64,000 nucleotides of DNA, taken from NCBI GenBank assembly GCA_051362555.1, contig CM120647.1, positions 744,001 to 808,000 of the forward strand, given 5' to 3'. Below are positions 2,477 to 45,639 of this stretch, in pieces; position 1 is the first letter of the stretch; each line of letters starts with the position of its first letter. The notes beneath the pieces are model-generated. The model was given only the letters and a program-made list of their open reading frames with translations. It ran no database searches and was not told where the DNA came from. This stretch comes from Lingula anatina. Taxonomy: Eukaryota > Animalia > Brachiopoda. The position numbers and the translations under genes are program-made.

Positions 2477-2907
2477 CCACTCCTGGGATGTTTACTGGGA
2501 CTGACTCCGATACTGAATCTTTCCTCTTCCTGTGTCGTCTTTTAAAACTGGTTGCTGTTAAAACTGGATGATAGGGGAACGAATCATCTTTTCTCTGTTC
2601 TGGTATGGGTTTGTCATCAACAGATGTTTCATCTCCTTCTCCTTTGACATCCATGAACTCCCATTCTTCTCCATCTGATGAGGTTTCATCACTGGTGTCA
2701 CTTTCAGAAAATTCAAAGTAATCTGGTCCTGCAGCACGTGCTGTAATCTTGGAGTATGCTATGTTGTTGTCTGCATCTTGCTGGTCTTTCTGTTGCTTCA
2801 GATATGCCATGGAGAAGACCTCACAGTTGTAAGGAGGCAGGTAAGTCAGCTCTTCATCCTGGGTCTCACTAGGTATCATGGCCTTTATGGCAATTTCTAC
2901 ATTGTAC
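2477..2907 (-). CDS. Exon: acidic low-complexity segment with basic cluster; gene continues off the window
   Basis: Phase-2 acceptor fits the previous exon. Contains ESDTSDETSSDGEEWE and KRRHRKRK. Strong donor G|GTAAGT at 2477; no downstream exon found in 1-2476. Confidence 0.8.
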
Positions 2908-5111
2908 CTGCAATATATCAATACATACAATACGCAGGTTACAATTTATTTTTAACATTATTGGTACTTTTAAAGGTTCTTTGCTTAAGTACAGTAACTA
3001 ATGACTATATAAAGTACCCCATGTATGTGTTTTATAAGTCACCCATTTCTTTTAAAAGTGAAGAGGTTAAGGTCCTCAGTTAATGCATATCTTATCAATG
3101 GAATAAGCCAGGATGTTTAGAGGGTGGATAGGTATGGGTAGGGGTGGATTGTTGCTGTTTTTCTTTGAGGACCCCCATGAGCTAAAAAAACTTGTGTCAA
3201 ATGGTTGATTTTGGGAATTGCATCATATGTTCATGCATTACATGTAAATTACTGTGGACCTCATTGAGTCTTGTTTCCACATCTTGGGTGGAAAAGAGAC
3301 CTTAGTCCGCCATTTTGAAAATAACTTATACCTGAAGTCCAAATCCTGGGTACTCTCTTCATAGTCTGTTCCCTGTGTCATGGTTTTTATGATGTCATCA
3401 ATGGAGGGTGTCTCTTTATCCTTTAATGCTCCCAGCAGTTTGAACTTGTCTGGCAGCTGACGAAATGTTTCAGCATCTGCTATTGCCTCTCTGATGTCAT
3501 GAACTAAGTTAGAAAGTTTACTTCTACTCTGATGCTTTTCTTTTTCCATGAGCTGTTTCAATCTTGTGAGAAACCTTTTCATACTGCAAAACTCTGATAG
3601 ACCTTGCTTTTTCAAGTCTGCACACAAAGCTTCTGACAGATGTTTGCGGAACTGGTTGATGTGGTCCAGTATCTCCTCTGTAAGCTCTGATGCTTCTGGT
3701 ATTGCAAATCTGTGTCTGAACAGCTCCAGGTGCGTGATTCTCTGTCTCCAGATGTCTACAATAAACCGTGTCGAGAAGTGCTTTGGTTGGAAGGTGAGCA
3801 TCAAGTAGAGAGCTAACATATTTCCCTCATCTTGAGGCAGGACGGTCATCCCATTGATAAACCCCACAGACGGTTTCCAGTTGATAAAATTGTGAGCAAC
3901 AGCCAGATATGTTCGCTGATCTAGATCACATGCTGAGGCAAATGGTGCACGCCAATCTGGATACCCAGTACATGGATACTCCCTCTGTTCAGGACTCATC
4001 ATGTCTGTCCCTCTAATACTTAGCACAGACCAGTGGATACGGTAAGGATGCATTGGCTGCTCTAAAGTAATCAGTCTTTTTTCACCTGGGAAGATGATGC
4101 TTTGGCGTCCTTCACTAAACTTGAAGAGGCTATGGGCATCTTTCGTGATGTCATGAAATATTTTAGACTCCCCTGGCCCTGCTCCTGTATAATGAATGAA
4201 AATTGATCCCTTTTCTGCTGGTTTCAGTTCTGGCAATGTTTGATGGGAAAAGATGCACAGTTTTGCCAGCTCTTTCATTGCTCTAAGTTTGCATTCATTA
4301 TTTATGCCATGCATTGCAGATTTTGCTGGGACATATATTGTACGCTCCATGTCCATCTTATTTGCCTTCATTTTTGTCTTCAAATTTGTATACTCCTTGA
4401 AGGGGTAGACATCTGTTTTGACATAATGGAGCTTGTTCATGGTTTCACCAACAAGAAATGCTGGGTGTAGAGCTGCCAGAAGCAATGCCTTCAGATCAAG
4501 TTGGGCAGAACTGATGAAGAGTTCTGAGGGATGGAAGAAATCTGTTTGGCTGGTAACACGAGGGTTGTCAACTTCCCTTGTGTCAGAAATAAAGAAAACC
4601 AAAGCACGGATCTTGCAGGCAATGCTCTGATCTGATACATATTTCAGAACTGAACTTGCCAAACGTGTTATCAAGCTTTCATAGGCATTTAATCTGCTCA
4701 AACTGACAGCATTATTCTCGCAGAATTCCTTTTTAATATCCCAAATGGATACTGTATCCACAATCATCCTACCCTTTTCATCATAGATCCACTCTAACCA
4801 TTTCTTGAATAAGTTCAGTAATGCAATTGGCTCTGAGCATGCACCCCCATCAAACTTGCGTCTGGACTTCTCTGACCTACGAAGGGATTTGACAAATTCC
4901 TTTGTGTTCTTTATGACTTTCTTAGTGGGCATCATGAAGGGATCCTTTGATGCTAGCGCTGCCGCTAGAATGATACCTTCCACTGGGCATCCAAACAGAA
5001 TGCCGTACAGAACCAACCTGGACAGTTTCAGATCCACTGGAAGCTGCATCGCAAGGTGACCCAGCATAGTGATGCTGGACCTATCAGAGTTTTCTAAAAT
5101 AATAATAATAA

Positions 5112-5146
<35 letters not shown>

Positions 5147-8100: not shown

Positions 8101-11100
8101 ATGTCATATCAACATAGTTTAAACATTGACCATCAACGTTGATTCAACATTGATTCAATGTTGATTTGCCCGCTGGGTACATGACTTTCGGTCAAACTTT
8201 TAAAGTAACTTTTCAAATATTTACTTCCGTTTGGAAGATATTTGGCATTTATTTTCCAAAACAAATGACAAGGGTGCATTGCAACAAGCATCTAGGCAGA
8301 TTCACAAATAGAGCCCAAAATCTAGGTTGATTTATTTGAGATTATATGTGACCCAATTCCAAGAGACGAGGTCACAGGTCCTTGTGCTCAAGGAGGACAA
8401 GCAGTAATGGTTACTTGATTCTGCTGATATGACACAGACCCTGCAGAAGCCAGAGTAGGATGAGGCAGAAGGAAAGTACCACCAGGGTTCACGCTGCTAA
8501 TACTAATAATGTCAAACTCACAGATTCACCTTTAAGTCACACCTATCACATTCACACCTATCTGGCACATCACTCCCTAGGGATTGTAATTCTGCAAATG
8601 AGGGTCTGTTTAGACAAGACACTTTGTTAAGTGAAGCAATGCATTTCAGTATGCCATTTCTTTACCTGTGAAAGCTCCATTCTCCCATAAAACTTTAATT
8701 CCATCATCAATATTCGAGATGTCTGGTGGTTCTATTGTGTCCTGAAGTATTTCCTTTGATCTCAAATCAGGGAAAGCATTTGTTGCAGCCTGTCTGGCTT
8801 TGAGCACCACCTTCTCCAGAGGAGCAGTCTGGATGTCTGGCTTGTCAAAGTTCTCCAACTCTCTGTAAAGCTTTCTGGTGTACAGCCTAATAACAAGGTT
8901 GCCTTCCTCAAACACTCTACCAGTACGGCCTGTAAAGGATAATAGTCAGAAAACTTGGTAAGTAATAGCAGTAATTATTTATTTGGTAATTCATCGTAGA
9001 ATTGAACTATTCAATAAATTAAACCACATTAGCATCTGTATTTGTGAAATTTTTTCTTGCATTCCAACAATTCAGTTTGAACATGCATATAAAAATTCAG
9101 ACTAAGTATTGAAGAAAAAGTAAATGAAAACAAAGAACTTCATAAATTGACAGCCTTAATGCCTTTGCAACAAATCAATGAACCTCCAACAGTAAGCTAC
9201 TCAAATCGACAGAAAATATAACAAACTGTAAGACCTCGATTGTTGATGACTGCGCTATGCCTGACACTTACAGGAGATTGCTTCTACACATGTGCTCAAT
9301 AATCTACTTTAAATGATTCATAAAAACAGCATATCCCATTTGGTGCCTTTTGCCATATATTAGCAATATTAAACTCCAACTTCCAAATGTTTTCCGTTAT
9401 TTGAAACATTTAACTAGTAGTTTCAACTGTTTTAACAGGTATGGTGTTATACCTTTCCTCTGTTTGGCAGATGCCTTAGAGATATGTGTACGCTGTAGAG
9501 TGGTCAGTCTGCTCGTCACATCATACACTGGCTGTCTCTTCCACCCTAGGTCAATTACCACACGTACTTGGGGCACTGTCACAGCATTCTCAGCTATGTT
9601 GGTTGTCAGGACAACATGGCCGCAATTGGCTTCTGGTGCTTTGAATGCATCTCCCTGATCTTCTGGTGGGATCTATAACAGAAATTAATAAAGGACATGA
9701 CTGGAATGAAAAAACATAGAAAAAAGGCTTCTTACCAATATCAATGCACATATAACATACAAATTATTTCATTTGTATCAAAATATACAAATTAAAGCCT
9801 GCATATCTGTTTGATACTAAAGAAATAAACCTGATAGACATTTAAAGATCTATTCAATGCTGGATGAAGCATATTAAATGAGTGTTAGATATCACTGAGT
9901 GTGTTGTGAGGCAGGATTCATCACATGATCAGGTTTTGATAAAATGAATTTGACAACATTACCTGTGAATGCAATACAATCACCCTCAGATGGTCCACAG
10001 GCCACTCCGCAGGGGGATTTGGCTCAAACTCTCCAAGTGCATCCCCCAACTTTTCAATACTTAACATACCTAAAACATACATAACACTTAAAAAAACTAT
10101 TTTTTTGAGTGAAATGTGTCACAAATATACGTACCTAAGATGACAGGGTAACCTTAAAAGGTGAATAACAATGTGTTAGGTATGACAGTGAGGTGTGAAT
10201 GTGTTAGATGTGACAGTGAGGTGTGAATGTGTTAGATGTGACAGTGAGGTGTGAATGTGTTAGATGTGACAGTGAGGTGTGAATGTGTTAGATGTGACAG
10301 TGAGGTGTGAATGTGTTAGATGTGACAGTGAGGTGTGAATGTGTTAGGTGTGACAGTGAGGTGTGAATGTGTTAGATGTGACAGTGAGGTGTGAATGTGT
10401 TAGGTGTGACAGTGAGGTGTGAATGTGTTAGATGTGACAGTGAGGTGTGAATGTGTTAGATGTGACAGTGAGGTGTGAATGTGTTAGATGTGACAGTGAG
10501 GTGTGAATGTGTTAGATGTGACAGTGAGATGTGAATGTGTTAGGTGTGACAGTGAGGTGTGAATGTGTTAGATGTGACAGTGAGATGTGAATGTGTTAGG
10601 TGTGACAGTGAGGTGTGAATGTGTTAGATGTGACAGTGAGGTGTGAATGTGTTAGATGTGACAGTAAGGTGTGAATGTGTTAGATAAGACAGTAAGGTGT
10701 GAATGTGCTAGATGTGACAGTGAGGTGTGAATGTGTTAGATGTGACAGTGAGGAATGAATGTTTTAGCTTTGACAGTGAGCTATGAATATTTTAGGTGTG
10801 ACAGTGAGGTGTGAATGTGTTGGATGTGACAGTGAGGTGTGAATGTGTTAGATGTGACAGTGAGATGTGAATGTGTTAGATGTGACAGTGAGATGTGAAT
10901 GTGTTAGGTGTGACAGTGAAATGTGAATGTGTTAGATGTGACAGTAAGATGTGAATGTGTTAGGTGTGACAGTGAGGTGTGAATGTGTTAGGTGTGACAG
11001 TGAGATGTGAATGTGTTAGATGTGACAGTGAGGTGTGAATGTGTTAGATGTGACAGTGAGGTGTGAATGTGTTAGATGTGACAGTGAGGTTATGAATATT

Positions 11101-11823
11101 TAAGGTGTAACAGTGTGGCGTGAATGTTTTAGCTTTGAGAGTGAGATGTGAATGGGTTAGGTGTAACAGTGAAGTAAGAGAAAAAAGTAAGTTCCTTATG
11201 GAAATCTTACCATCCAAAAATACCACCAAAGTTTCTCCAGGCTTCAGGTATTCTTGTATAAGAGAAACAACTATTCGTTCCAAAGCGTAACTCCTTTTTT
11301 TCACTGCAGATTCATGAAGCTCTCCATGATCACTGAAGATCTTTTCTCTGAGGTTTGAGTATACTGCCCTAAAACCAAAACCACGCAAAAATATTAAATG
11401 AATATACTTAAAACACAACAGTCTCCGATTTGTAAATGACAAGTAATTAGACACAGAGAATGGCAGACATCACGGGATGGCTAGAGTGTCTGCATCCGGA
11501 GTGGAAGGAGTGGGTCTGACCCTCTCCTGGGTACCTTATAAATGGTACCTGCTGTCTCCTCGCTTGACACTCAGCACGTAGGGGTTGAAGCAGGGTTCCT
11601 GATCAGGCAAAGAAACATATTGTAAGCTTGGTAACATTCAGCACCTCATATGGCAGTGGGATTGAATCCTCCCTAGGGAGAAGACATCCTCAACAGATGG
11701 TAATGACCAGGTATGATACTGTTATATGTGTACCACTACCTACTATAAAGACTACAGCCTACTGAACAGATTTGGGATTTAGACTTTAAACAATAAATAT
11801 GTTTATTTGAATTTCTTTCTTTG

Positions 11824-11855
<32 letters not shown>

Positions 11856-14800: not shown

Positions 14801-17800
14801 CGAGGGTATATTTGAAATCTACACATATGACTTTTGGAAAGCCGTCTGTAGAAAATTTTCCCGTAACTCCTTCCGTAGGGTAGATAATTAGCATTTAATT
14901 TTGCCATTTTTGGACAAGGGTGCATTGCAATGAGTGCCACACCCAGACCCCAATACCGACAAAGCCCAAATTTTACGTGGAACGAGTTGAGATTATAGGT
15001 GACCTAAATCCATGAGATGGGTATGGGGGGCCTTACCGTCTAGGAGGAGAAGCGGTAACGGTAGCCGTCCGGCGGAGCCGGCGGAGCCGGCGGAACGATC
15101 CGGACGAGACCGAAACCATGTGTACCGCCAGCGCTAACGCTGGTGGTACAATAATAATTATTATTATTATTATTATTACTGTTATTATTATCATCAAAGA
15201 AAGAAATTCAAACTGAAACTGTACAAGCCAGACTTTGGCCTGTTTTATTAAGAAGTTACCAGCCAAATATTCAAAGTAGAGGCCATGTGGTAATAACTGA
15301 TGATTGAGATGTTATCAGGTACCAATGCTGCATAGTTAGTTGTAAGTCAGATGCAAATAAAGATAAAATTAAAAACTGTTTTGATAAATCGTTTTACTCG
15401 TCGCTTTACTCATTTTAAAATTTAGGCTCTAGAAGTACTTGTTTCAAGATACATATTTCAAGAACGTTAAAAATATGCTTTGGGTCAGAAAGCTCAGACA
15501 GTTAGCTTGCATCAGTTCGTTTCTGCTTTGATTTTGTTTACACATCACTTGAGGCTGATTCTGAGATGATCTCAGTCTCTTCTATGGGACCTTCGTAATT
15601 TTCAAATCTGCTCCATGATCAATTTGCACGCTTTCTCAAGGAAGTATCGACTGTGCATTATCCCAAGACGTACTTCGTCAAACTTCGTCGCTAAAACGAA
15701 GGCTAAGGGCTTTCAAAATCGACAGTGAGACTGTGAATACGTCACTACAGAATTCCTCAACATCAACTAATCACGATTATTACTTATGAAAGTAAAAACG
15801 GGGTTAGCAGTTAGGGGAATTCCCTGAACTTCCCCGTAAATATTGGCACGTCAATCGGACTTTTACTGAGTCTAAATTTTGCCGATACACTTAATATAGA
15901 AAGTTGACATAAATATACTCGCCAAAATGGCGACTTGCACCATAAATTTCACACACCAGATTTAATTTTTACTCGCATTTGGCGTGTATCAAATGCTGAA
16001 TAATGATGCCCAAATAAGGTTATTTGGTCATTTTTTAAGTATTTTACATATAAAAGGGCATCATCACCGCAAATTTGTCATTATGTACTACTAGCACAGG
16101 GCTTTAAAAAAACTGCATAAGATTAAGAAAAAAATTCAATATGGTTGGCATTTGAAGGTGAGCGCGTTTTAGCTTTTTGAATTATTGAAAGTTTGAGAGT
16201 AACTTTTGTACTATAACACATATCTGTGCATTTCTGAGTGGCTGCCTGTTGATTAAATGTTATACATACTAGTATATACATAAGCTACACCAAAGGTGGG
16301 TACCTTTCCTTCTCCAGGTTTCCATCATCTGTTTCTGACTCTTCTTCGTCTGTATCCAACTCCTCTCCTTCTTTATCCACCTCTGGTCCGTCTGTTTTGA
16401 CATTTTCCTCCAAGAAAGTATCTACAGATTTTATGAAATCACTGACATCCCAGCCATTACATTTGGCAATCTTTTTGACATAATATCTCCTCACATCCTC
16501 TGATAATGTCCACACGTGGTCACTGATGTCCTCTAGGTAAACCTCTGTCACTGGGTGCTGATGGACACCAACAAATATGGGGGCAGAATCCCAGGAAGAC
16601 AAGTCTTGGAAATATCTGTAAGGACAGAAAAAAATCACATTTCATCGGGGTCATCTGGTCTGTAGATTCAAAAGGGCTGAGCTGTTTCAGCTCACAACAC
16701 AAGGTATATAAATAGTAGTTGCTGCTGTAAAACAGTCACCTGTTGCAACATTGGATTATATGTATCTGATTTTCACAATTATTGTGGGTAACAGCAATGG
16801 GTTATCATCTTTGAAAGTATGTCAAAATATTCCTTTATGTTGGATTACAATGGGGGTTCTTTCATGTGAAAGGGGATGGATTTGTCTTATTACAACAAAC
16901 AATTTTGTGTTTCCAAACATTGCTGTGCATTTTAAACTTTGTAATTCTTAGCCAAAAATGACACTAAAACAGCACTTAAATCTGGGACACAGACATACCA
17001 GTCTGTTTTGCATCTGTGCTGTATGGAAAAGAAAACTTTCAGAATAGTATTGTCATGTTTTTGGTCATCTCAGGGATCATTTATGGGACACAAACTACAG
17101 AAGAAAAACACAATTGAATATCGTTGCACATTTTGTTGTGCATTACCATTGTTTCAGTTTTTAACTTCAGTACTTCAGTATTATCTCCTATAAATGTAAG
17201 CTATACAAATCATTCAATTTCGGGATTTAAATACCTGAAATACACTCTGCTTTTCATAAAACAACGATGTGTAATAAATCATGTTATCACAGTTGTTATG
17301 TTTCGTTTCCTTCAGACTCGCATGACAGTGAAACCACAGCTAGCTTGTAGTATTGTTTCCAGATTTAGATTCAGCCCAGGGACTTAAAGCGTAAATAGTG
17401 ATTTTCATTGATGACATAATGATTGGGTCACATGAATATTAAATGATGACTAATTAAATTAGCTTTATCTGGTACCCACTTTTAAGCATGAAATGTTATG
17501 TCATTGGTATTTAACCGCCGATTCAGGATCGCAGCATGCTTTCACAACTCTGTAAAGTTAAGTGTACCCATTCCTGATAATTTTTGTATGTGTTTAATCT
17601 TACAGTACATTTACCAAAGTTTACGAATATAAAGCAAAATACAATGCATATTCTAAGCAGAATCACTCTTGACTCTCAGTTGAAATTAAACTACACAGCA
17701 AAGCTGACAAATATACAGACACCATACCAGAAACAAGGCAGCAAATCTGTCAAAAGTTCAGACATTACACAAGCAAAAAATGGCATACTCACTCTTACCC

Positions 17801-20800
17801 TCTTACATTATGCACTACAGGTAACATGAACATGGAAAAATTAGCAAGTGATTCAATTCCATGTGAGATAAAAGCCAATGAAAATACTAATGTGTGAAAA
17901 ATGAAATTTTCACATATAAAAAAACAAAATAATTACCATAAATGTAAACTGATAAATGCGGATTTTCAAAAGCAAACAAATCCACTTAGTAAATTTAAAG
18001 TAAAAGTAAAACAAAAATATGGTTTGGCAGTTATGGAAATAATGACACAAAAATTGTGCAAAAACCAGAATAATTACTCCAAATGTATAACAATCAAGCC
18101 TATTTTAAAAAGCAACCTACCTCTTTACCAAACACATCCACTCGGTAAATTTAAAGTAAAACAAAATTACTGATTGGCAGTTATGGGACGAACATCATCA
18201 AAATTGTGCAAAAATAAAACAGAGTAATTACTATTATGAAAACTGAATGTGACAATTTTTCCAAAAAAAAAAAAAAAAAATAATAATAATAATAATAATA
18301 AATAAATAAATAAAATAAAAAAAAATAAAAAAAGACCTAGAGGACCAGAGAGGCGCCTCTGGATATTGTACCACCAGCTTGAGTAAGGACATTTCTAGGA
18401 CCCCCCACCCACCTCCACCCAGGAAAAAAAGGACACACCACCAGTATGGGCGGCGGTTTATACAAAAATTCAAAACACGATTAGTCGTCATCGTTATCAG
18501 ATCAGTCAAAATGAAAACACGATTAGTCGTCGTCGTTATCAGATCAGAAGGCAAAATAGGACTAGTAGTCGTCAAAACGCAACTAGTCATCAAGACGCAA
18601 CTAGTCATCAAGACGCAACTTATCGTGTACTCCAAATGTATACCAATCAAGCCTATTTTAAAAAGCAACCTACCTCTTTACCAAACACATCCACTCGGTA
18701 AATTTAAAGTAAAACAAAATTACTGATTGGCAGATGGCGCCCATTGTACGAAAATCTAGGCCAAGTCACATGATCCACAGTGATCAAAATGGCGGACATT
18801 ATTGAAGCAGCATTATCATATTCCTCACTCGAACTCGAGAATTGTCTCTTCGCGTACAATCTAATAATGATATTATATATATAATAATATATCAGACTCG
18901 AGATAATTCGAGGAATATGATAATGCTGCTTCAATAACGTCCGCCATTTTGATCACTGTGTACCACCAGCTAGATTTTCGTACAATGGGCGCCATCTGGC
19001 GTCAAATCACGTTTTGATGACTAGTTGGGTTTTGATGACTAGTTGCATCTTGATGACTAGTTGCGTTTTGATGACTAGTTGCGTTTTGACGACTACTAGT
19101 CGTATTTTGCCTTCTGATCTGATAACGACGACGACTAATCGTGTTTTCATTTCGACTGATCTGATAACAATGACGACTAATCGTGTTTTGAATTTTTGTA
19201 TAAACCGCCGCCCATACACCAGTTCATTCAGTTTATTCCTTGGCATGACAAATTTATTTGAGACGTATAAGAAAATATTAAATAATAGAAGTGGTTAACA
19301 TGCATTACTGGCAATTCATGCTCCACAGAATATTTGTATCTTTAATGAATTTTTTTTAAAATCCTTAAAGCATACTAGAATTCATTTGCAATTGTAATTA
19401 CTTATGTCATTCCTGAAGCACTGTCAAAGTGTCTTTTAAAAATCTTTAGGGAATTTTTTTACAGAAATCTTGACAAAACAAACAAACCAACATAAAACAA
19501 ACACCTGTGCTGGTGGTAGCGAAAACTTCTGGCCATGTGCTGACCATGTTCCACTACACGCTGACAGTGCCCAAGCAAGTCTGGAATAATCATTTTAAAT
19601 CATAACATGACCAAGCTGGTAAATATACTCAGAACTAAAAGTTATGAATACATATACATACCTTACATAAATATCTTCCTGCATGGTTGCTGACATTAAA
19701 ACAAGTTTGGTGTTGTTTGGCACAGAAGTCATCAGTTTTCTGATCATCCAAAGCAGTAAATCAAACTCCATTCTCCTTTCATGCACCTCATCCAATATGA
19801 TATGTGTGTACTTGGTAAAGTGACTGGGTCTGTGTATCAGGTTCTGAAATATGTATGAACTGTCAGAATATGAAAAGTAGCAAGGCTGTCAAATGTACAG
19901 AATTATAACAGACACCATAAAATAAAGCAGAAAATAGAGATATTTGAACAAGATATTTGCCAATTTTGATTACATCCTTACATATTGTTAAAAAGCATAA
20001 TCAAATCAATATTATACTATGTACTACACAGGGCATTTAGAAAATTAAACTTACACAGGGCTTCAGCCCATTGGATTTCAATGTCACATTATGTCAATAA
20101 CAGTGTTCATGCTCCTTGATGAACAATCATTTTGCTTGGGCAGGCCAGTAGCCATCAACTTGAAAGGGGGATGTTGGCAAAAGCAGTCCTTTTACCTTGA
20201 AATCTTTGTGTACTTAGATCAAATTTTAACCCTGAGCAGACTTTTTCCTCTTCAGAAATACACTGCACTTCCAAATAAGGTCTTGGTTTTCTTAACCATT
20301 TACAAGAGCCAGTGAAAGCGTAAAAATTGACAAAGAGACGCAGCATTCAGCATTGCAACATTCACTGGATTGAAACTCATCAAGCCTTGCTGACAACATG
20401 GTTAAATGATCAGAACAAGAAAAATATTGTATTGCAAAAATTTGACTTCTGTTGTAAGTGTTTGGGTCAAGAAAAAATAATAGTAGAAAATAAATATCTG
20501 GTTGGATATTTGTATGGTTATCTTACACTTCCAGTGCTAGGAAAATTATCAAAATCTGAGTTTATTTATTAATAAATGCACCAAGAAAATGAAAAATATA
20601 AAAACACAACAATTTACCTCTAGTAGAGCTCCAGTAGTAACAAATGTTATTTTTGTATCCTTGGAGATCTCTCTCTTGTCCCCTGCACTGTACCCTACTG
20701 TGCAGCCAACATTTGGATCACCCTGTTCCTTGGATACACGTTCCGCTAGCGTCACAGCAGCCAGCTGTCTCGGCTCTGCGACAAGAATTCTTACTTTTTT

Positions 20801-23680
20801 CATTCTAATCAAAAAAGAAATAATATTTGTTGAATCACGCAATTTTGAAGAAAACATTAACAGCAGAAATATTTGATTCAACTGAAATGAGACACAAAAT
20901 ATTTTACTCTGTATCCTATGCCCCTATCTTCACATCTTTAAATCCAAGATCAACTCAAGACTTACATATAATACAGTACATACAGGAGCTGGTATGCCAG
21001 TGTTTTCATTGAGTTTGAGTGACTTGAAAAAGTTTTTTAAACTAAAATCTACCTTCTTTTCACACAGTCAGCCAGGATGTACTGGGGCACCTGTGTTGAC
21101 TTCCCGGACCCCGTCTCTCCGGTGATGAATGTCACCACATTATCTTGAATTTGGCTCACTATCTGTTCCCGGTGACTTGTTATTGGAAGAGAGTCTTGTC
21201 TTGGTTGCTCTAAATAAAAATTCACACCCTCATCAGCTTCGTAGTCTCCAATACAGGTGCTGTCAGCGTCTAATTCTGTTGTGAGGCGTGACCCAGTGTG
21301 GTAGCCAGATTCTGAAGCTGAATACTCGCTCCCAATGTCTCCCTTCTCTACATTCCAAGCCACAAGTTCTTGAGGAACATCTTCACCTGAGAGAAATAAC
21401 AAACAGTGACCACATAATATTTATTTTTACATATTTACAGCAGCGAAGAGCTAGTGGTATGATATTTATTAAATATATTTATACACAAAGAAAGAAATCT
21501 TCCACATAGATAAACATATCATGCATGGAATACAACAATTCACCATAATTCATTCTCAAATTTTAAAATCTACACTGTTTACAAGTAGCTGTCACAATGA
21601 AGTTGTGCTACTTAAGTATGCAGATACAAGAGTCTGAGGTCAAATTGTGAACTTTTCCTTGTTAAATTACACATTAATCATCAAAAAATGAACTTTTGCA
21701 GTACTTTGGAAAGATTCTTTTAATAAATCAGTCAACAGCCAGATTAATCAAAGGAAGGAGAAACAAACTAACCAAAATATACTTCTACTTATTTTTATCT
21801 GACACAATTGATGAAAATAATAAACACTGAAAATACAAAATATCTGACCTGTCAATCTTAAAGTTTGTGAGCCGATGTTGATGGTCATCACCCCCAGTTC
21901 ACGGAGGTCATCTTTGGGTAAATCCTGGATATTGTCTTCAATGTGACCCACATGATGAGGTTGTATGCCATAACATATGACAGCCCAATACCCAGGGCTG
22001 CCATAGTCCCACCATTTGATCAGAATGTCTTCTTTACGTAGAGTGAAAGCTGCCATCAGGGCTTGACGTATGCTGTATATAGTCTGCTCTGCACTGCCAT
22101 ATGGACCTTTACGTACTGTCATCTTCAAGTCTTCGTAAATCATTGCTATAATGTGTTGAAACAAAAGTAAAGGGATTTTAAACATAAATACTATGATCTT
22201 TAATCATAATTTATCATGACTTCATAACTTATTCATTAAACCTGTTGCTGATTTAAAAAAATACTTTAAATTTACTATGAGAGTGCCTGTGTGTTTGTTT
22301 GAGTGTGTGTGTGGGAGGTTGTTTACTAAATAGCTTAATCATAAATTAAAAAAAATAATAATAAAAAAAATAAAAGCTCAACTACAGAGAGTATGACATT
22401 ATACTATAGAGCAAGCAGAAAAGTATAAATGACAAAGGAGTATCTCTTATCTGATATCATATACATACATAAATTTTCAGGGTAAGATTTAAAAAATAGA
22501 CACCTTTCAACTTTGTCTTTTCCTTTATGTATTTCCTACATTCATTGTAATCATCTTCATCCATTTCAACCCACAGATTAATGTCGCTGCGGCTCAGGCC
22601 CAAATCCTCAAGGGTCTTCATGCCGACAAAACTTTCCTCTACAGCAGCCTGTAGCTCACCGCAGCGATAACTTTGCCACAGCTGGTCCAATGAGTGCACT
22701 GATGGACAAACCAAGCGAAGGATAAAACACTGGCGCTTTGTATCATAAATCATTGCACGATAATCTTTCATGTATTCCATAGCTTTTCCAATATCTTCAA
22801 ATTTTGTAACCAAGGACATTATAGCCTCATTCATTTTCATGAGGTGTACGTCTCTAGCTTCACACAGGGGGGTGGTAAGTTCTGAAAGAGGTACTTCAGC
22901 TGAGGTAGTTGGTTCATCAGAATTTTTTAAGTTCCCTTTCTCAGAAATGACCTTTCTTGCCTCATCCAGATGAGGTGATATACCAGTGATCTGGTCTGTG
23001 TTGCTCCCAGCACCTGTCACTGAGGGTAAGGCTTCCCTGTCTGGCTGAGTGTCCTCTGGACTTGGTGTCTTCTGACTACTGGAGGAGATGGCTGATGATT
23101 TGACTGCTTCCATTCCTGAAGGACTGATTTTCATATGGATATCAAGATCCACTGAGCCTGGAATTTGACATTTTAGGCGCAAAGTAAATTATGACATACA
23201 AGTTGCAGAACTTTTTCCCTACTTCACAATATGAATGTATTCTTTTTGGCCAGTGGTGTGTGGAAGCATTCAACAGAAGTGTAACAAAGCAAGCTGCCTG
23301 GTGAAATCTTTCACCTGCAATATCTAAAGTTATATTTTGGACTGATACACTTCATTGGTTGTTTTATCATTATATGCAAAAATAAAGTTTAAAAATTCAA
23401 AATACTTTTAGTTTGAATTTATCGCAAGACACTACCCAGTGGGCAAAATATGTTGTTTTAACATTGAAACAACGTTAAACCATAACGTTGATAAGACATT
23501 GGATAAACATTGGATTTGAAAGTTGACTCAACCTCAGATAACAACGTTGTATCAACGTCAGATAACAACATTGTATCAACCCCAGTTGTTAGACAACATT
23601 CTTGCATGAAAAGACATTGAAATGACCTGAGGGTAGGGTATAAAAGTATGGCCTTTAAGTTAAAATTTCCAAGGTTTAGA

Positions 23681-23727
<47 letters not shown>

Positions 23728-24488
23728 CAAAGTCACAGTCACCTCAACCTGTCTATGTATAACAGGTTACCAAGAACTGTTAACTTTATTAATTCACTCC
23801 ATCACATTTACAGCAACTTACTCTGAAGTATCAAATAAACGTACCGGTACGTTAATTAATTTTCCAAATTTCTTCCCGCCGGTACGCTCCATTTTCACCC
23901 AGTACGCTTATTAATTTTTCAAAAATCTTCCACCCGGTATGTTTATTAAATACATATTGTACCGGTGGGAAATTACACAAGTACAAGTCACGCTTTTTAT
24001 TTTCTTAAATTGAAGTATAATGAGAAGAAAATTGAGATCTCAACTCATTACCGACTGTTCTACCAACAGCACTGGAAAGTAGGTCAAGCGGAAGTCGCTC
24101 TCTGAACACAACAGTACATGCGTCACCTGATTTCAGTTCCTATAAATAGACGTGCTTTCCCTTCAACAGTGACAACTACTCGATCGAATGATGCAATGAC
24201 GCAAGGTGATAGGATCATATTTATAGCTAAGGAGGTCATTTCAAGTGCAGCAAAGAAGTTGTGCCTGTTTTCAAACGTCAATTATTTCATGCCGATTTAT
24301 GATTTAAACGATGTTAAATCACATTTCTATGTAAGATAAACCCTTAGGAGTTTACAGGTATGCAAAACGAACCTTATATCTGAGAATAAATTTACTATGA
24401 ATAACGTCTCCGTATGGCTCTCGGAGGCGGCTTAGGTGCGACATATCTGGGTCTTCGGCCCCTGACGATTATGAAATTTAACTCATGG

Positions 24489-24575
<87 letters not shown>

Positions 24576-26758
24576 AAATAAATTAGATATCCCGTTTTTA
24601 AGATAAATTATAATACTGAGTGAATTTTACCTGGTGAATTTTTTTTTTTTTTTTTTACAATGATCAATAGCTAGCTTTTTTCTTTCTCTTCTTCTTCTTT
24701 ACTTTTATTTATTTATTTCATTTTTTTTTTTTTTTGGGGGGGGGGGGAGTGGTGCAAAGGTTTTTTCCACCCAGTACTTTTATTCCATCCAGTACTTTTA
24801 TTAAATTTCGAGATTTTTTACACCCAGTACTTTTATTCCATCAGTACTTTTATTAAATTTTGAGATTTTTTCCACCCAGTACTTTTATTCCATCAGTTCT
24901 TTTATTCGATACTTCAGAGTAGGCTGTATTCCCAGAGCTTTTAGATCGATCTATCCCCACGGGGAGTCTCACTAGATTACTGTCAGATAATCCGGCTTAA
25001 ATGTCTGTCCTGCCTACTACAAGCTGTAAGGGGGTAATTAACTTTAGCGTGAACCCCCAGGGAGTTAGGTCGATCTAAAGTAGATTGATCTAATCTCTGG
25101 AAATGGGGTCTTATTCATCCTAGTGTTAGCTGACCTTGCAAGGAATTCAGTTTATTGGAATGTATTTCTGAATAACAAGTTAAGAAAATTCACTATTTCT
25201 CTAAAGAGACAAAACAACTGTCACTTTTACTTACTTTTTTTGATTATTTTGATAAAGTTAGTTGCAGTATTGATAAACAAAGTATCGCGTTTTCAACAAT
25301 TAATATTTTAAAATATAATCCATGTCTGCAAGGTTGTGTCAATGACCAAAATACAACGTTGAGTCAACGTCACATTATGACGGTGTTTCAACGTGGCTGG
25401 ATCAACGTTGATTCTACGTTGAATTTAGGTAGATCAACGGCAATTCAATGTATCAACCTCTTTTCAACGTTGATCCAATGCAACTATGCCTGCTGGGTAC
25501 CTGGAGTTTTCTGAAATTCTGTTGTATCTCGGTCTCTGTCACATATTGTCTGGACATTTTCTTGCATTTCTGAAAACAAAATAGAAGGTCTCAAGTTGTA
25601 TTTTATCTGCAGTGTTATGTTGCTAATATCATAATTTCAAATTCAATTACATCCAAGAAAAGGTCAGAGATGGATTTTTTTCAGAATCAGAACGTAAACC
25701 ACAAAAATTCCACTGTGCATAAATTTTACTGATATTGAAAAAAAATGTCTAAACCATAAAATGCATATGGTCATACCTTTTGTCATTTGGAGTTGCTGAC
25801 CTTGCGTTGATCTTAAAGATGCAAGTTCTCCTCTTCCTTTTTCTAGATGAAATTGGATATTCTGCGAGTCTTCTTTTTGTGCAGCTTTGACCTCTTCCAT
25901 GAACTTCTGTGTCTGCTTAAATTTGTCCTTCAGCTCTGACTGACCTATGTCCATCTGTGTGACTCTTTGAGAGATTTCCTCAAGTTTATTATGTGTATTT
26001 TGAGCGACACTGTCCATCTTCTTGAGAATAGTGTCTTCACTTCTTTTATGAACCTGTTCCACATGGTCCTGCAGCTTTGTTTCACCTTCTTTCAATTCAT
26101 GTATGACTTTTACCAGCTGATCTTTCACATCTTTGTCATAATCACACCATTCTTTCAGAATGTTCTGGTTTCTCTCCAGTAAAGCAGCATCAAGAGGTTT
26201 AGACAAGATGGCATCATAGTCCTCATCGGTGTACATACTAGAGAGAGCCAGCAAATTGGACTTGAGCCCTGAGAAATGTGCCCTGAAATCTTGATCACTA
26301 ATTGCTGCCTTGTTAGCATGACCATACACAATGTTTCGATATCTTTTAACTCGCCCAATCGTGGCTTCTCTTGATGTGTCTGAGTCAGAGGGGTTGTCCC
26401 ATGCATTCAACGGTGGTCGTGGATTCAATGTTGTGATATTTCTCAGCATAAGCACAGTCAATGTGATGTCTAAATCACCAACAGTCACTGATGAGGAGGG
26501 GTTTCCACCAGGATACAGCTGGTTTTGTTGATGTACATTAAGTACTCTGGATCGTACTAGTCTATCCAGTTTTGTTCTGACAATTCCATCACCAAGCACC
26601 CCACGTAACAACCCAGTGCTCAGGTCAAATAAATTGGGATACTTTGTTGTAAGCTCTTTCTGAAGAACATCTTGCAAAACTTTCAAGGCATTATCTACAA
26701 TTAATACAGTCATACGAAAAAAATTCTCCTGGTCAGGGTTGGAACTTGCTGTTGCCAT
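2477..26758 (-). CDS. Multi-exon gene (3' end off window): HEPN (DZIP3-type) + coiled coil + TRADD-N-like + TDRD9/Spindle-E-like DExH RNA helicase, at least 1,986 aa
   Basis: 14 exons joined by hand, all GT-AG with matching phases: 26758-25777, 25569-25501, 23157-22504, 22145-21849, 21386-21053, 20804-20618, 19843-19662, 16615-16304, 11368-11211, 10069-9963, 9672-9453, 8929-8666, 5093-3332, 2907-2477 (5,959 nt, no stop). Helicase motifs appear in order: GETGSGKST, EPRQLAA, TTGALL, DEVH, SAT, VFLDG, LHSQ, TNIAE, QRKGRTGR, then HA2. Confidence 0.85.
3332..5093 (-). CDS. Large exon: HA2 domain and long C-terminal region
   Basis: ITMLGHLAMQLPVDLKLSRLVLYGILFGCPVEGIILAAALASKDPF is an HA2 signature, TDRD9-like. 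1,762 nt open; donor AG|GTATAA. Confidence 0.9.
5150..8380. mobile_element. Older diverged copy of the Helentron-like family at 11853-15150, interrupted by the 6146-8177 insertion
   Basis: Shares aaagtaggtcaaaggtcaa units, tgaccttgaa...tcaaatcc and gacaagggtgcattgcaa with 12000-14200. Similarity resumes directly after 8179. Boundaries are approximate. Confidence 0.55.
6146..8177. mobile_element. Non-autonomous DNA transposon with CCCAG termini (EnSpm/CACTA-like)
   Basis: Perfect TIR CCCAGCGGGCA...TGCCCGCTGGG, TA duplicated on both sides, and dense subterminal TCAACGTTGA/TCAACATTGA repeats at both ends. Confidence 0.8.
8666..8929 (-). CDS. Exon: motif VI end and winged-helix region
   Basis: GRTGRVFEEGNLVIRLYT...PDIQTAPLEKVVLK...TIEPPDISNIDDGIKVLWENGAF. 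Confidence 0.93.
9453..9672 (-). CDS. Exon: helicase motif V and start of motif VI
   Basis: IPPEDQGDAF...VVLTTNIAENAVTVPQVRVVIDLG...ISKASAKQRK. Confidence 0.93.
9963..10069 (-). CDS. Exon: RecA2, motif IVa (LHSQ)
   Basis: GMLSIEKLGDALGEF...LRVIVLHSQ. Not in the ORF track; phases 1-0 fit both neighbours. Confidence 0.88.
10172..11170. repeat. 28-bp minisatellite, about 35 copies
   Basis: Unit gtgttagatgtgacagtgaggtgtgaat fills almost the whole intron 10070-11210. Confidence 0.95.
11211..11368 (-). CDS. Exon: RecA2 start, motif IV
   Basis: IVVSLIQEYLKPGETLVVFLDG; acceptor ggttttag, donor G|GTAAGA. Confidence 0.85.
11460..11740 (+). mobile_element. Degenerate tRNA-derived SINE, possibly with a Meta-type central domain
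   Basis: tRNA-like head (gatggctagagtgtctgc...ggagtgggtctgaccc) followed by aaatggtacctgctgtctcctcgcttgacactcagca, which resembles the MetaSINE core as I recall it. Confidence 0.4.
11853..15150. mobile_element. Helentron-like non-autonomous element with a 146-bp satellite array and a duplicated 3' end
   Basis: Starts ACTAGAGG within (AAT)n. Subterminal TGTACCACCAGC at ~11891. About 7 copies of a 146-bp unit at ~12045-13050. Terminal hairpin TGTACCGCCAGCG-ctaa-CGCTGGTGGTACA at ~14294 and 15121; 13502-14322 is repeated at 14323-15150. Confidence 0.7.
13300..13588. mobile_element. MITE with TA target duplication, filled with palindromic repeats
   Basis: TIR CGGAAGCCGACTGGTGCCATATG / CATATGGCACCAGTCGGCTTCCG flanked by TA. 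Interior has 5 copies of the perfect palindrome TATCTCGAAATTTCGAGATA. Confidence 0.8.
16304..16615 (-). CDS. Exon: RecA1-RecA2 junction with acidic insert
   Basis: YFQ...HPVTEVYLEDI matches the DEAH F/Y-P-V-x-x-x-Y-L-E-D motif; an acidic run follows. Phase 2-2. Confidence 0.88.
18445..19216. mobile_element. IS3EU-like non-autonomous foldback element
   Basis: Termini TATGGGCGGCGG...CCGCCGCCCATA, ~180-bp inverted arms, and a 6-bp target duplication CACCAG (18439-18444 and 19217-19222). TAY...RTA ends with a 6-bp TSD are typical of IS3EU. Confidence 0.75.
19662..19843 (-). CDS. Exon: helicase motif II (DEVH) and motif III (SAT)
   Basis: YTHIILDEVHERRMEFDLLL...KLVLMSATM. Confidence 0.95.
20618..20804 (-). 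CDS. Exon: helicase motifs Ia and Ib
   Basis: ILVAEPRQLAAVTLAERVS...VGCTVGY...TKITFVTTGALLE. Confidence 0.93.
21053..21386 (-). CDS. Exon: helicase RecA1 start, Walker A
   Basis: LPITSHREQIVSQIQDNVVTFITGETGSGKSTQVPQYIL is typical of DEAH/RHA helicases. Confidence 0.93.
21849..22145 (-). CDS. Exon: ~99-aa alpha/beta module of uncertain family
   Basis: Open frame AMIYEDLKMTVRK...LRELGVMTINIGSQTLRLT with canonical splice sites, phase 1-1. Confidence 0.75.
22504..23157 (-). CDS. Exon: Ser/Thr/Pro-rich linker + TRADD-N-like domain
   Basis: MEYMKDYRAMIYDTKRQCFILRLVCPSVHSLDQLWQSYRCGELQAAVEESFV...LEDLGLSRSDINLWVEMDEDDYNECRKYI fits the C-x-S-xx-SL-xx-LW-xx-Y-xx-G-x-L pattern of invertebrate TRADD-like N-terminal domains. 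Phase 1-1. Confidence 0.7.
23435..25497. mobile_element. Second CCCAG-terminated DNA transposon with nested insertions
   Basis: CCCAGTGGGCA...TGCCTGCTGGG with TA on both sides and subterminal CAACGTTG repeats. Confidence 0.75.
23821..24919. mobile_element. Tc1/mariner-type non-autonomous element nested in 23435-25497
   Basis: TA-CTCTGAAGTATCAAATAAA ... TTTATTCGATACTTCAGAG-TA, with subterminal ccacccagtacttttatt repeats. Confidence 0.75.
25501..25569 (-). CDS. Small linker exon (EMQENVQTICDRDRDTTEFQKTP)
   Basis: Acceptor ttttgttttcag, 69 nt, phase 1-1, open frame, donor CAG|GTACCC. Not in the ORF track. Confidence 0.6.
25777..26758 (-). CDS. Exon: DZIP3-like HEPN domain followed by a coiled coil
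   Basis: QENFFRMTVLIVD...DLDITLTVLMLRNI...WDNPSDSDTSREATIGRVKRYRNIVYGH...ISDQDF matches the HEPN_DZIP3 pattern, with an R-N-x4-H motif. A Q/E/K/L-rich helical tail follows. ATG in ACC-ATG-G context; splice acceptor at 26800; donor G|GTATGA at 25777. Confidence 0.85.
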
Positions 26759-27137
26759 GGTGACTGTCACTTCTACCAGTACATATCTTCCCGCCTTAAC
26801 TGAAATGTAAGATAGATTTTGTCATTTCCAATGAATGCATGATATTTAAAGTGTCAAAATTCAATACACCAGTTATCTATCAACAAATTACCTGAAATAG
26901 GTTAATTTTTTTTCTGAACTACTTGTAAACATTTAGCTCTGCTTTAATTCAAACTACATCAATTTATACAAGCAGAGATGATAGGATGATAATAATAGTA
27001 ATAATAATAATAATAAACTTTATGTAAAGAGGGTAAACAATATTAAGTGTATACACTTAGGGTCTATTCCCATAACTTTAGTTCGATCTATCACCGCGGG
27101 GAGTCTCACCAGACTACCGTCAGATAATCCCCCTTAA

Positions 27138-27787
27138 AGCAATAATAAGTCTTCGTTTGAGATTCAAAATTCCGCAAGAAATACATTCTAAACAACACAC
27201 GGAAATATATTATACTGCATTTCACCAGTAAAATGGCTGTTATTGTAGTAAAACTAAAAACTGTGCTTGTCAATAGGGCTTTTGGTGCCTTTCTTCCCGG
27301 TCGTCAAGGCATTCGTTGCCAAGGATTTTGGCGCATCACGCGGATTCTCGCGTGCATTCGAGACCAAAATAAAGTGGCGGGATAAGATATAGCACAATCC
27401 TCAGACGTAAGTTGCAAGTTTTTGTTCAGTAGGTCGATAACAAATAGCCCAGAACTGCACACGTTGTGGATATATGCATTCTGAGCAAGAAGACAATTAT
27501 ATCGTATGAATCTTTTTTTGTTGTAATAAAGTGTTGTTGTTGTCAGCTTTTCCGGCGGTTTTAAGTAGGTCATCAGAAAAACCCCTCTCGATATGCTATG
27601 TCAGAGAGAGCTCCGTCAGTTAAAATCTCTTAAGAGATTTTAACAAAAAACCAAGCGTTTAGGAAAAAAAAACCTGGACTAACTTTGAATGCAGGAATGG
27701 GGTCGTTGACCATTGGTGAGTACGGGAAAATTGTCGTTTACGCCAGGAAAATCCAATTTTTGGCCAAAACGAAGAGTTATTATGACT
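27138..27787. mobile_element. Kolobok-like non-autonomous DNA transposon
   Basis: TTAA-AGCAATAATAAGTCTTCGTTT ... AAACGAAGAGTTATTATGACT-TTAA. The host repeat (27060-27926) has an uninterrupted paralog at ~24922-25110 with a single TTAA. Confidence 0.8.
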
Positions 27788-28560
27788 TTAAGTGTCCGTC
27801 TCCGCCCACTACAAGCCGTAAGGGGCAATTAACTTTTGTGTCCGCACGGCTGACAGCTATTCAGTGCGAACCCCCAGGGAGTTAGGTCGATCCAAAGTAG
27901 GTCGATCTAATCTATGGAAATGGGGTGATATATTACACATCACCCAAGGATACAGGTCATACATGTAGTTGTATTTATCCTTGTAAAAGATGGTTAGACA
28001 CGAATTGTCTGATGTACATGTAGTACAGTACTAATGTAATGTGGTACAGGTACAGTGTGTAGTTATTTATACTATAACTTCACAAAAGTACTGCCCCTTA
28101 CGATAAATAGCTACTGGATCCTCAGGAAATTGGCCCATGTATGATGTAATGTGCTACAGAAGACACTACTGCTCAGATCATTAATGATCTCTCCATCTCC
28201 AGTAATCTGGACAATACCTGACTATTACCATACGTACATACAAATAACTACCGCTACCTTTAAAAATCGCAGACAGTTTATCAACAACATATAGCCCTGC
28301 TCTTATCGGTATAGTAATTAAGGCCAAAGCTTCAAAGGATAATGTTTATTTAGAAAATGGTTTCGGTGACCATTTTTGTTATCTTTTTACATATGAAATA
28401 AAGCAAATAGCTTCTCATATTTCACAATGCTTGCAGTACACACATGTATCTTGTCATTTCCGTAGTCAGAGGCGATGGGCGAGCACTTTAGTTTTTAAAC
28501 ATGTAATCACCTACCTCATTCTTCCCGTAGAAGTCCATTAGGTAAATAAAGAATACAATA

Positions 28561-29908: not shown

Positions 29909-29938
29909 ATTTTGGTGCCGCGAGCCGGGAGTTCATAT

Positions 29939-30704: not shown

Positions 30705-30749
<45 letters not shown>

Positions 30750-31725: not shown

Positions 31726-31764
31726 ATTGCAGGACTACAGCGTCACGGATTTGAACGCTTAGCC

Positions 31765-44505: not shown

Positions 44506-44550
44506 ATTGGCGAGCTCTTTTCAGGACTTAATTTTTAGCGATCTAACGAA

Positions 44551-45585: not shown

Positions 45586-45639
45586 CCTATTGACCATTGT
45601 AACTAGTTCAAGCAGAGAGGCGTAAGAAGGCATGTATAG

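Follow-up and report, generated by a model that had tools for sequence, protein, structure and literature searches.

HEPN RNases act as dimers, and RNase L and the bacterial sensor-HEPN abortive-infection systems are ligand-triggered, dimer-activated RNases of the HEPN type. In animals, corals and bivalves carry expansions of DZIP3-type HEPN domains. A class of TRADD-N proteins catalogued by Kaur et al. 2021 (PMC8195603) includes such a domain joined to a helicase: rows of the supplement hold two truncated Lingula models, one with HEPN, TRADD-N and SF2 helicase domains and the other with TRADD-N, SF2 and HA2. The sections of the paper on this class place it within an immune expansion, propose that its members are triggered by, and act against, RNA viruses or retroelements, and suggest retro-copying as a source of fusions.

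Here, we analysed a gene in a 64,000-nt stretch of Lingula anatina DNA (contig CM120647.1; hereafter the window), which joins these halves. RefSeq models 87-90% identical to it are themselves rows of the DEDD2-clade TRADD-N data set of Kaur et al. The sequence-only reading had called the architecture unknown from characterised genes. This held in part: the joined gene is in no database record, while its halves, the domain combination and the immune hypothesis appear in the rows and sections of the 2021 paper and supplement (PMC8195603), and the same architecture had thus largely been described. What is new here is the joined gene, the clade of its helicase, and the delimitation of a four-exon, phase-1 cassette. 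We see about an even chance that the predicted product is a single-chain immune sensor-effector, with the cassette fused to a Tudor-less DEAH/RHA-type helicase and an HEPN RNase that would be triggered by RNA.

Results

On the minus strand, 14 exons splice into 5,959 nt (1,986 codons, 0 stops), exactly the in-frame, stop-free model proposed from sequence alone. Exon borders were picked with the frame in view, so that frame continuity by itself is no independent test. All 13 introns of the fused HEPN-helicase gene have GT-AG borders, and each of the 13 junctions is spanned by RefSeq XP_013416013 or XP_013399402, with 16-25 of 25 residues matching. Paralogues indicated both exon 2, of 69 nt, and a donor at 3332; given these, earlier models of 13 exons (5,962 nt) and 14 exons (6,031 nt) were replaced.

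Three Lingula anatina RefSeq models are colinear with the gene: LOC106177707 (XP_013416013/18; 87% identity), LOC106165647 (XP_013399402; 90%) and LOC106169783 (XP_023933649; 93%). XP_013416013 covers exons 1-9 and stops after exon 9, and XP_013399402 runs from the end of exon 1, in the coiled coil, to exon 14, without HEPN. We found no single database record with the whole architecture, each RefSeq model being a part of it. The reading frame is still open at 2477 and paralogues run ~83 aa beyond the window's end; by prediction, a final coding exon follows beyond the window, which would bring the complete protein to about 2,070 aa. At the other end, the coding part of exon 1 begins at an ATG, with the frame open from the acceptor at 26799/26800, and the window has no upstream exon resembling the hydrophobic N-terminus of paralogue P0009. 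LTR elements lie 3-20 kb upstream of the gene.

The cassette comprises aa 1-667 and four exons, each ending in phase 1. Exon 1 (25777..26758), supported by Pfam, RNA depth and a read junction, encodes HEPN_DZIP3 (PF18738, aa 51-195) followed by a coiled-coil-like segment. The Pfam match (E 9.6e-41; 139.4 bits against a cut-off of 27; profile positions 4-142 of 144) and the intact R-x4-6-H motif, with N after R (R141-NIVYG-H147; RVKRYRNIVYGH at 26353-26318), bear out the HEPN assignment made from sequence. PADLOC left the HEPN domain unmatched and gave weak matches in the coiled-coil region only. A homodimer prediction for the HEPN domain, run without an alignment, scored 0.28 against a mark of 0.32 and counts neither way. 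The coiled coil is supported by the heptad score and by paralogues annotated Coiled-coil; it ends in exon 2 (25501..25569; 69 nt, phase 1-1), which was located by tblastn with paralogues and has reads at both junctions.

Exon 3 (22504..23157; phase 1-1) encodes an S/T/P-rich linker and then a TRADD-N-like domain at about 22873-22505 (aa ~451-568), over which paralogues are 70-81% identical. That domain, too, had been named from sequence, and the name is supported by an ESM Atlas match of exon 3 to TRADD-like_N clusters (0.94; 214/256 features; 10/10 best named matches agree) and by the TRADDN-DEDD2 annotation of exon-3 paralogues in rows of Kaur et al. 2021 (PMC8195603). Pfam TRADD-N had no match in exon 3 at E 0.5, and among paralogues the IIGP-type P0008 reached only E 0.039. 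Exon 4 (21849..22145; phase 1-1) encodes the last part of the cassette, a 99-aa domain without an assigned family that is 82-99% identical among RLR-, IRG- and helicase-type paralogues. An alignment of 4 rows gave a model of the TRADD-N and exon-4 domains with pLDDT 48.5. Exon 4 might conceivably encode a second, NCOA6-type TRADD-N; Pfam, PADLOC and ESM Atlas returned no match for it, and the profile comparison with exon 3 gave a probability of 0.4%. Ankyrin domains had no match in the window pieces or the cassette paralogues.

These domains could also signal without cutting, with HEPN binding RNA or acting as a scaffold and TRADD-N, on RNA binding by the helicase, recruiting immune or death partners. 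The literature, in the portions available, offers predictions rather than measured RNase activity for DZIP3-type HEPN domains, and non-catalytic RNA-receptor roles have been proposed in part of that literature for some animal HEPN expansions (PMC3710099). Paralogue P0010 has lost the motif arginine (Q for R), and one RefSeq model keeps TRADD-N and the helicase without HEPN. Against this, R141 and H147 (R-x5-H) are retained in the window gene and 5/6 paralogues, despite HEPN regions only 69-86% identical to the window's, and 194/202 pearl-oyster family members keep the motif in the reported set (PMC9646362). We regard signalling alone as rather unlikely.

In the helicase part, exon 5 (21053..21386) encodes an acidic linker and motif I (GETGSGKST, K763; 21120-21094), exon 6 (20618..20804) the RecA1 motifs Ia and Ib, and exon 7 (19662..19843) motifs II (DEVH; 19792-19781) and III (SAT, aa 892). 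Exons 5 and 6, identified by motifs, have RNA junctions on both sides; exon 7, matched by Pfam DEAD, has its 5' junction in RNA. RefSeq paralogues define exon 8 (16304..16615; the RecA1-RecA2 linker with an acidic insert), exon 9 (11211..11368; motif IV, also recognised as a motif), exon 10 (9963..10069; RecA2), exon 11 (9453..9672; motif V and the first half of motif VI, with Pfam Helicase_C) and exon 12 (8666..8929; the remainder of motif VI and the winged-helix part of HA2). Motif VI (QRKGRTGR, aa 1165) is interrupted by intron 11. Exon 13 (3332..5093) encodes the HA2 ratchet and an OB-type C-terminal domain with long insertions, as indicated by Pfam HA2_C, AlphaFold and Foldseek, and exon 14 (2477..2907) encodes an acidic tail that is 92-96% identical to paralogues.

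The two RecA domains, matched by Pfam DEAD and Helicase_C, retain intact motifs I, II, III and VI. Departures from relatives occur at motifs Ia (EPR for QPR), IV (FLDG for FLPG) and V (AENAVT for AESS[IL]T), and may lower helicase activity. HA2_C matched exon 13 with E 4e-6. The AlphaFold model of this exon had pLDDT 80, and its residues 7-512, the HA2/OB half, superpose on DHX36 688-990 with Z 22.5 and rmsd 3.1 over 283 aligned residues; the model and its searches took the frame to 3261, 24 codons beyond the 3332 donor, in a low-confidence end that leaves the matches unaffected. The earlier description of a full DExH helicase with HA2 is thus sound.

Its designation as TDRD9/Spindle-E is not. 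The helicase sits in a Tudor-less clade (support 100/100), which rooting on DHX57/DHX29 places as sister to TDRD9/Spindle-E, and a tree constrained to put it inside TDRD9/Spindle-E was rejected (AU test, p-AU 0.0002). It belongs to a separate clade and is no orthologue of TDRD9/Spindle-E deprived of its Tudor domain. Tudor (PF00567) had no match in 12 window pieces or the whole of paralogue P0162, compared with E 5e-12 for the TDRD9 control P0205, in a profile search that could miss a strongly diverged barrel in the ~220 residues of exon 13 left unaligned. Members of the Tudor-less clade come from sponges, an annelid, a hemichordate, an apusozoan, alveolates, a diatom and a jakobid; we found no description of it in the literature. 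FastTree places the window helicase with those of Owenia and Glandiceps (0.95), and we do not claim orthology with them because a more careful tree leaves that fork unsettled. Identity as a RIG-I-like receptor was also rejected, since profiles for the helical insertion and C-terminal regulatory domain (RIG-I_C, RIG-I_C-RD) had no match in the window pieces or P0162, and both match the RLR P0007.

Kinship with Spindle-E raises the alternative of small-RNA silencing, in which the helicase would remodel PIWI/Argonaute-target complexes and HEPN would destroy the released transposon RNA. The sister position fits this, as do the best solved-structure match by sequence (Spindle-E, 252 bits, vs 221 for DHX29) and the best Foldseek match of the exon 13 model, Spindle-E 9nhs_G, an entry that is itself a PIWI-piRNA-target complex. 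The absent Tudor match and the rejected placement within the TDRD9 clade speak against it, and the other partners of the cassette are innate-immune modules, not piRNA factors. We consider silencing quite unlikely.

Those partners supply the immune context that had been suggested for the gene. The cassette is 75% identical to an RLR-linked copy and 71% to an IRG-linked copy (aa 1-667/674); the RLR (P0007) carries RIG-I_C and RIG-I_C-RD, and the other copy heads the IIGP (IRG-type) GTPase P0008. CARDs hold the N-terminal place in canonical RLRs, as described in part of PMC8260672, and the Lingula RLR has the cassette there. Without the rest of the cassette, the HEPN exon stands at the head of two NACHT-CARD proteins and one CARD protein, and 5/6 matches of the HEPN-exon search are linked to immune-type modules, the sixth being the gene's own family.

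At the exon 4/5 border, identity to the RLR and IRG proteins drops: 20-21 of 30 residues are identical on the cassette side and 5 of 30 on the helicase side. Compared with its paralogues, the cassette of the window gene is a mosaic (protein-level runs test, p 0.0013, 0.022 and 0.0002). Among 288 proteins compared, cassette profiles match only Lingula proteins; derived from close paralogues, these profiles would overlook more distant cassettes. The closest annelid and hemichordate helicases, from Owenia and Glandiceps, have Walker A at aa 38 and 171 and no cassette, and we infer from this that the cassette was added to the helicase by exon shuffling in the Lingula lineage. The cassette has retained its introns and has a phase-1 intron as its boundary, which would fit shuffling at the DNA level better than retro-copying.

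RNA reads at 96% likeness, from about 6% of each of runs X1-X3, were mapped to 26950-19550, a region that holds 6 of the gene's 13 junctions. Five of these six were seen: 25777>25569 (12 reads), 25501>23157 (5 reads), 21849>21386, from cassette to helicase (11 reads), 21053>20804 (8 reads) and 20618>19843 (7 reads). The first mate was on the plus strand in all junction-spanning reads, the arrangement that minus-strand RNA gives in most stranded libraries. The junction 22504>22145 and a direct 25777>23157 skip of exon 2 are both absent from the read junctions listed for X1-X3. Of the path proposed earlier from 25777 through 23157 and 22145 to 21386, the reads thus bear out the first step, by way of exon 2, and the last, 21849>21386, and the listed junctions lack the middle one. 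Run X8 had no junction reads, and at 90% likeness the reads over 15200-29250 were swamped by intronic repeats, with no exon junction among the rows listed. Expression is low, with a mean depth per 247-nt bin over exons of 0-7 in X1-X3 and <1 in X8.

Low depth is one of several features expected of a recent exon-shuffling by-product in a fast-turnover family, weakly expressed and without a settled function; the mosaic cassette, the helicase motif departures, the upstream LTR elements and the several divergent copies or alleles of the gene in RefSeq are others. Such a by-product sits poorly with 1,986 open codons over 14 exons, with accurate intron splicing in the reads, and with three RefSeq models, 87-93% identical, whose frames are open and whose catalytic motifs are preserved as far as each model extends. 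We think it decidedly unlikely. That the HEPN and helicase parts are separate genes or transcripts joined only on paper is hardly credible: reads cover only the region of exons 1-7, lack one cassette-internal junction and, being short, cannot place both parts on one molecule, and no single database protein spans the architecture, but reads join exons 1-2-3 and 4-5-6-7, XP_013416013 runs across exons 1-9, and XP_013399402 goes from the end of exon 1 to exon 14. The HEPN cassette and the helicase belong to one real spliced gene of a Lingula-type brachiopod, as had been proposed, and this is confirmed.

Discussion

We propose that the gene encodes a sensor-effector whose helicase would bind RNA that is foreign or aberrant, its probable ligand, and RNA-loaded helicases would bring two cassettes together. 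The coiled coil could then pair the HEPN domains to form an RNase site, with TRADD-N as a putative switch or adaptor. Either the invader's RNA may be cut, or the host's own, with the cell shutting down. If this is true, RNA sensing and an RNase are directly coupled within a single chain in an animal, and one effector block is reused on several sensor types.

A more far-reaching possibility, which we offer tentatively and hold to be doubtful, is that the four phase-1 exons are a portable RNase warhead, shuffled and recombined among unrelated sensors (the RLR, the IRG GTPase and the ancient Spindle-E sister helicase). Sensing would then directly trigger RNA cleavage with no cascade of signals in between, an animal parallel to those bacterial abortive-infection systems that consist of one protein. 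The helicase marks the Tudor-less sister clade of TDRD9/Spindle-E, and this account, if true, would be the first functional pointer to that eukaryote-wide clade. The three natural fusions of one cassette also form a compact test set for whether DZIP3-type HEPN domains cut RNA and what switches them on.

Among described systems, the expansion catalogued by Kaur et al. shares with the gene a DEDD2-clade TRADD-N, variable RNA-binding or RNase partners and lineage-specific copies; unlike the present analysis, its rows and sections leave the helicase family unnamed and the exon 4 domain unannotated. Lingula XP_013399073 (HEPN-coiled coil-TRADD-N-RLR) and XP_013399072 (ending in an IRG/AIG GTPase) have the same N-terminal cassette; the C-terminus of XP_013399073 is an RLR, whereas that of the window gene is a DEAH/RHA helicase with HA2 and OB. 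Domain order is alike in the Exaiptasia protein with HEPN, TRADD-N and a DDX58-like helicase and in coral HEPN, coiled-coil and TRADD-N proteins, and the C-terminal partners differ. DZIP3/hRUL138-like HEPN proteins, including coral and bivalve HEPN-NACHT receptors, have the same Pfam family, the R-x4-6-H motif and an effector in N-terminal position; the window HEPN is fused to a helicase, whereas the partners tabulated in the relevant part of PMC3710099 are NACHT, ankyrin, TPR, CARD and death domains.

TDRD9 and Spindle-E resemble the gene in their DEVH helicase with HA2, their sister clade and the best PDB match, and differ from it in that the gene has no Tudor match, falls in a separate clade and carries the cassette. 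RNase L and the bacterial sensor-HEPN abortive-infection systems differ in that the window gene has no kinase, ankyrin module or second messenger, and they follow a logic similar to the one proposed for the gene.

Gene structure and transcript support

The gene is real, and was correctly read from the sequence alone. On the minus strand of the window, its coding sequence runs through 14 exons from an ATG at 26758 to 2477, and its 5,959 nt (1,986 codons, 0 stops) reproduce exactly the figure of the sequence-only reading; all 13 introns are GT-AG. Comparison with paralogues revealed a 69-nt exon (25569-25501), and the exon-13 donor at 3332 is the one that paralogues use. Alternative in-frame donors lie at 25801, 24 nt before the exon-1 donor, matching the 8 aa by which RefSeq isoforms X1 and X2 differ, and at 3260, 72 nt past the exon-13 donor. 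Since the frame remains open at the last donor (2477) and two paralogues continue for ~83 further residues, beyond the window sequence, the full protein would be ~2,070 aa. An acceptor precedes the ATG of the HEPN exon by 41 nt (26799-26759), with the frame open across. As the HEPN-bearing paralogue P0009 continues past this position into an N-terminal hydrophobic stretch, an additional upstream coding exon is possible; none resembling the P0009 N-terminus was found within the window.

All 13 junctions are spanned by partial Lingula anatina RefSeq models of close paralogues: XP_013416013 (exons 1-9, 87% identity), XP_013399402 (end of exon 1 to exon 14, 90%), and XP_023933649 (exons 8-14, 93%). 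These matches point to L. anatina or a near relative as the source. RNA reads from four runs under the same species label (~6% of each of X1-X3 and 26% of X8 sampled) were mapped at 96% likeness to 19550-26950 only. Here, the predicted joins were borne out at five of six junctions (12, 5, 11, 8, and 7 reads, X1-X3 combined), including the cassette-to-helicase junction 21849>21386 (11 reads), with every junction-spanning read on the strand expected for minus-strand RNA. The remaining junction, 22504>22145, was absent from the read table for X1-X3 and X8 at this likeness, with thin coverage of exon 3 there. Run X8 gave no reads across the junctions of this interval, and exon read depth was low (0-7 per bin).

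Domain anatomy

The domains named in the sequence-only reading held up. HEPN_DZIP3 covers aa 51-195 (Pfam E 9.6e-41), with an intact R141-NIVYG-H147 motif that is retained in five of six paralogues. In P0010 (LOC106172698), a HEPN-CARD-NACHT paralogue, Q replaces the motif arginine, so its HEPN is likely inactive; its near-twin P0009 keeps the arginine. A coiled-coil-like segment at about aa 210-350 was indicated by a crude heptad score (peak 242-285), and the same region is annotated Coiled-coil in paralogues. Atlas called a TRADD-N-like domain at aa ~451-568 with very high confidence, though Pfam gave no match on this exon. The exon-4 domain (aa 569-667) is conserved and matched no family in Pfam, PADLOC, or Atlas. 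The two RecA domains of the predicted full DExH helicase (aa ~730-1190) have motifs I, II, III, and VI intact and Ia, IV, and V variant. An AlphaFold model of exon 13 from a 30-row alignment (pLDDT 80) aligned with DHX36 across the HA2/OB half (Z 22.5, 283 residues, rmsd 3.1), and Spindle-E was top-ranked by Foldseek.

A cassette shared among Lingula proteins

A search of longer proteins with exon 1 produced six matches among 3,801 candidates, every one from Lingula: the gene's own family, a RIG-I-like receptor (RLR; P0007), an IIGP/IRG GTPase (P0008), two NACHT-CARD proteins, and one CARD protein. The last three have only the HEPN exon in common with the gene, while the RLR and IRG proteins share the whole cassette of exons 1-4 (aa 1-667; 75% and 71%). 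Identity to these two proteins falls across the exon 4/5 border from 20-21 of 30 residues to 5 of 30, and exons 1-4 each end in phase 1. Similarity that ends at an intron with same-phase exons is the pattern expected from exon shuffling, by which, we infer, the cassette was joined to the helicase. Sites shared by the window and one or other paralogue were clustered in the cassette in three pairs (permutation p 0.0013, 0.022, and 0.0002, at the protein level, where domain-wise rate differences could also affect these values), which suggests recombination or gene conversion between cassettes. Cassette profiles, which are narrow, matched only Lingula proteins among 288 compared.

Helicase clade

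The helicase had been described as TDRD9/Spindle-E-like, an identity that the trees did not uphold. In a search with the XP_013399402 core, proteins of Glandiceps, Owenia, protists, and sponges for the most part outranked named TDRD9/Spindle-E, DHX57, and DHX29 proteins (best 120 of 2,040). Trees were built with FastTree (77 rows) and IQ-TREE LG+C20 (37 of those rows, chosen to span groups; 533 columns). With IQ-TREE, 19 rows without a Tudor match, window included, fell on one side of a branch (100/100), 11 Tudor-bearing rows formed a separate group (100/99), and seven DHX57/DHX29-like rows a third. A constrained tree placing the window helicase inside the Tudor-bearing TDRD9/Spindle-E group was rejected (p-AU 0.0002). 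Whether the Tudor-less clade is the sister of TDRD9 depends on the DHX57/DHX29-like rooting, in an outgroup without DHX36, DHX9, and YTHDC2; a PDB sequence search agrees with that placement (Spindle-E 252 bits, DHX29 221, DHX36 213).

Clade members include Amphimedon, Owenia, Glandiceps, Thecamonas, Toxoplasma, Symbiodinium, Nitzschia, and Andalucia. In the non-Lingula members scanned, Pfam detected neither HEPN nor TRADD-N. A second Lingula protein of this helicase family, the distant P0014 (XP_013394042, LOC106161588; 30% identity, 2,439 aa), has a long, repetitive C-terminal part in a model without a 5' end. Relatives in sponges likewise carry greatly extended tails, which match WH_Egal or PAM2 weakly.

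Repeats and mobile elements

Long tandem arrays lie within introns and downstream of exon 14: 28-bp x36 (10170-11172), 146-bp x7 (12047-13054), and 159-bp x5 (1404-2216), with an 820-bp repeat pair at 13505-15148. The XP_013416013 model runs on into intron sequence and stops immediately ahead of the 28-bp array, which may be why older annotation split the gene. Within intron 2, ~760 bp between two (TA)n tracts (23727-24491) had deeper same-strand reads than the exons, carrying fixed differences from the window sequence; this is probably repeat sequence whose transcripts come from copies elsewhere, or possibly an alternative end of a short HEPN/coiled-coil transcript.

A Pao/BEL-type LTR retrotransposon (29618-37630, +) starts ~2.9 kb upstream of the ATG. 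Its 292-bp terminal repeats (29618-29909 and 37339-37630) are 96% alike, its single open 1,854-codon frame (31546-37107) carries DUF1759, RVT_1, Peptidase_A17, integrase, and DUF5641, and 29257-29617 is an inverted copy of 31370-31727. A 3.9-kb LTR element (43951-47824, +) with 100% identical 555-bp repeats appears to be a non-autonomous element that inserted very recently. Its gag-like frame (44539-45582) gave marginal or sub-threshold matches to Retrotrans_gag and zf-CCHC, and a further frame of 312 codons (45807-46742) includes a hydrophobic stretch and matched nothing in Pfam; no pol-sized frame was found in the element. Open frames of tandem repeats at 51149-51835 and 63047-63619 (+; ~51-bp and 63-bp units) had no Pfam match.

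Proposed function and comparison with known systems

We give an even chance to a one-chain sensor-effector, for which the main argument is comparative: an RLR and an IRG-type GTPase both carry the cassette as their effector end, and NACHT proteins carry its HEPN exon. RLR, IRG-type GTPase, and NACHT modules oligomerise on ligand or nucleotide. Beyond the domain anatomy we infer every step: RNA loading onto the helicase would cluster the cassettes, the coiled coil would bring two HEPN domains together to form an RNase site, and TRADD-N would gate the signal or pass it on. Signalling without RNA cleavage is an unlikely alternative to set beside the retained HEPN motif; our literature search, which covered few subscription papers, found no measured activity for the DZIP3-type HEPN family. 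A silencing role resembling Spindle-E, the top Foldseek hit yet a member of the Tudor-bearing group, appears somewhat less probable, and a near-neutral product of exon shuffling a little less so again. That the HEPN and helicase parts are separate genes, set against reads joining exons 1-2-3 and 4-5-6-7 and RefSeq models spanning all 13 junctions, is very improbable.

The sequence-only reading did not recognise the architecture from characterised genes; the class and both halves are catalogued, in the supplement rows of Kaur et al. 2021 used here, which list two truncated Lingula models as HEPN+TRADD-N+SF2 and TRADD-N+SF2+HA2, the Lingula fusions to an RLR and to a GTPase, and a HEPN+TRADD-N+DDX58-like protein from Exaiptasia; RNA invaders are the trigger and target proposed there (PMC8195603). 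The portions cited of PMC3710099, PMC8998645, PMC9646362, and PMC8260672 describe the family of DZIP3-type HEPN domains and how it has expanded, the RNase motif predicted for it, and grafting at the N-terminus of lophotrochozoan RLRs. The same literature search found no account of the joined gene or of the helicase clade. To the catalogued class and halves, the present analysis adds the gene in its joined form, the shared cassette with its exon boundaries, and the helicase clade.
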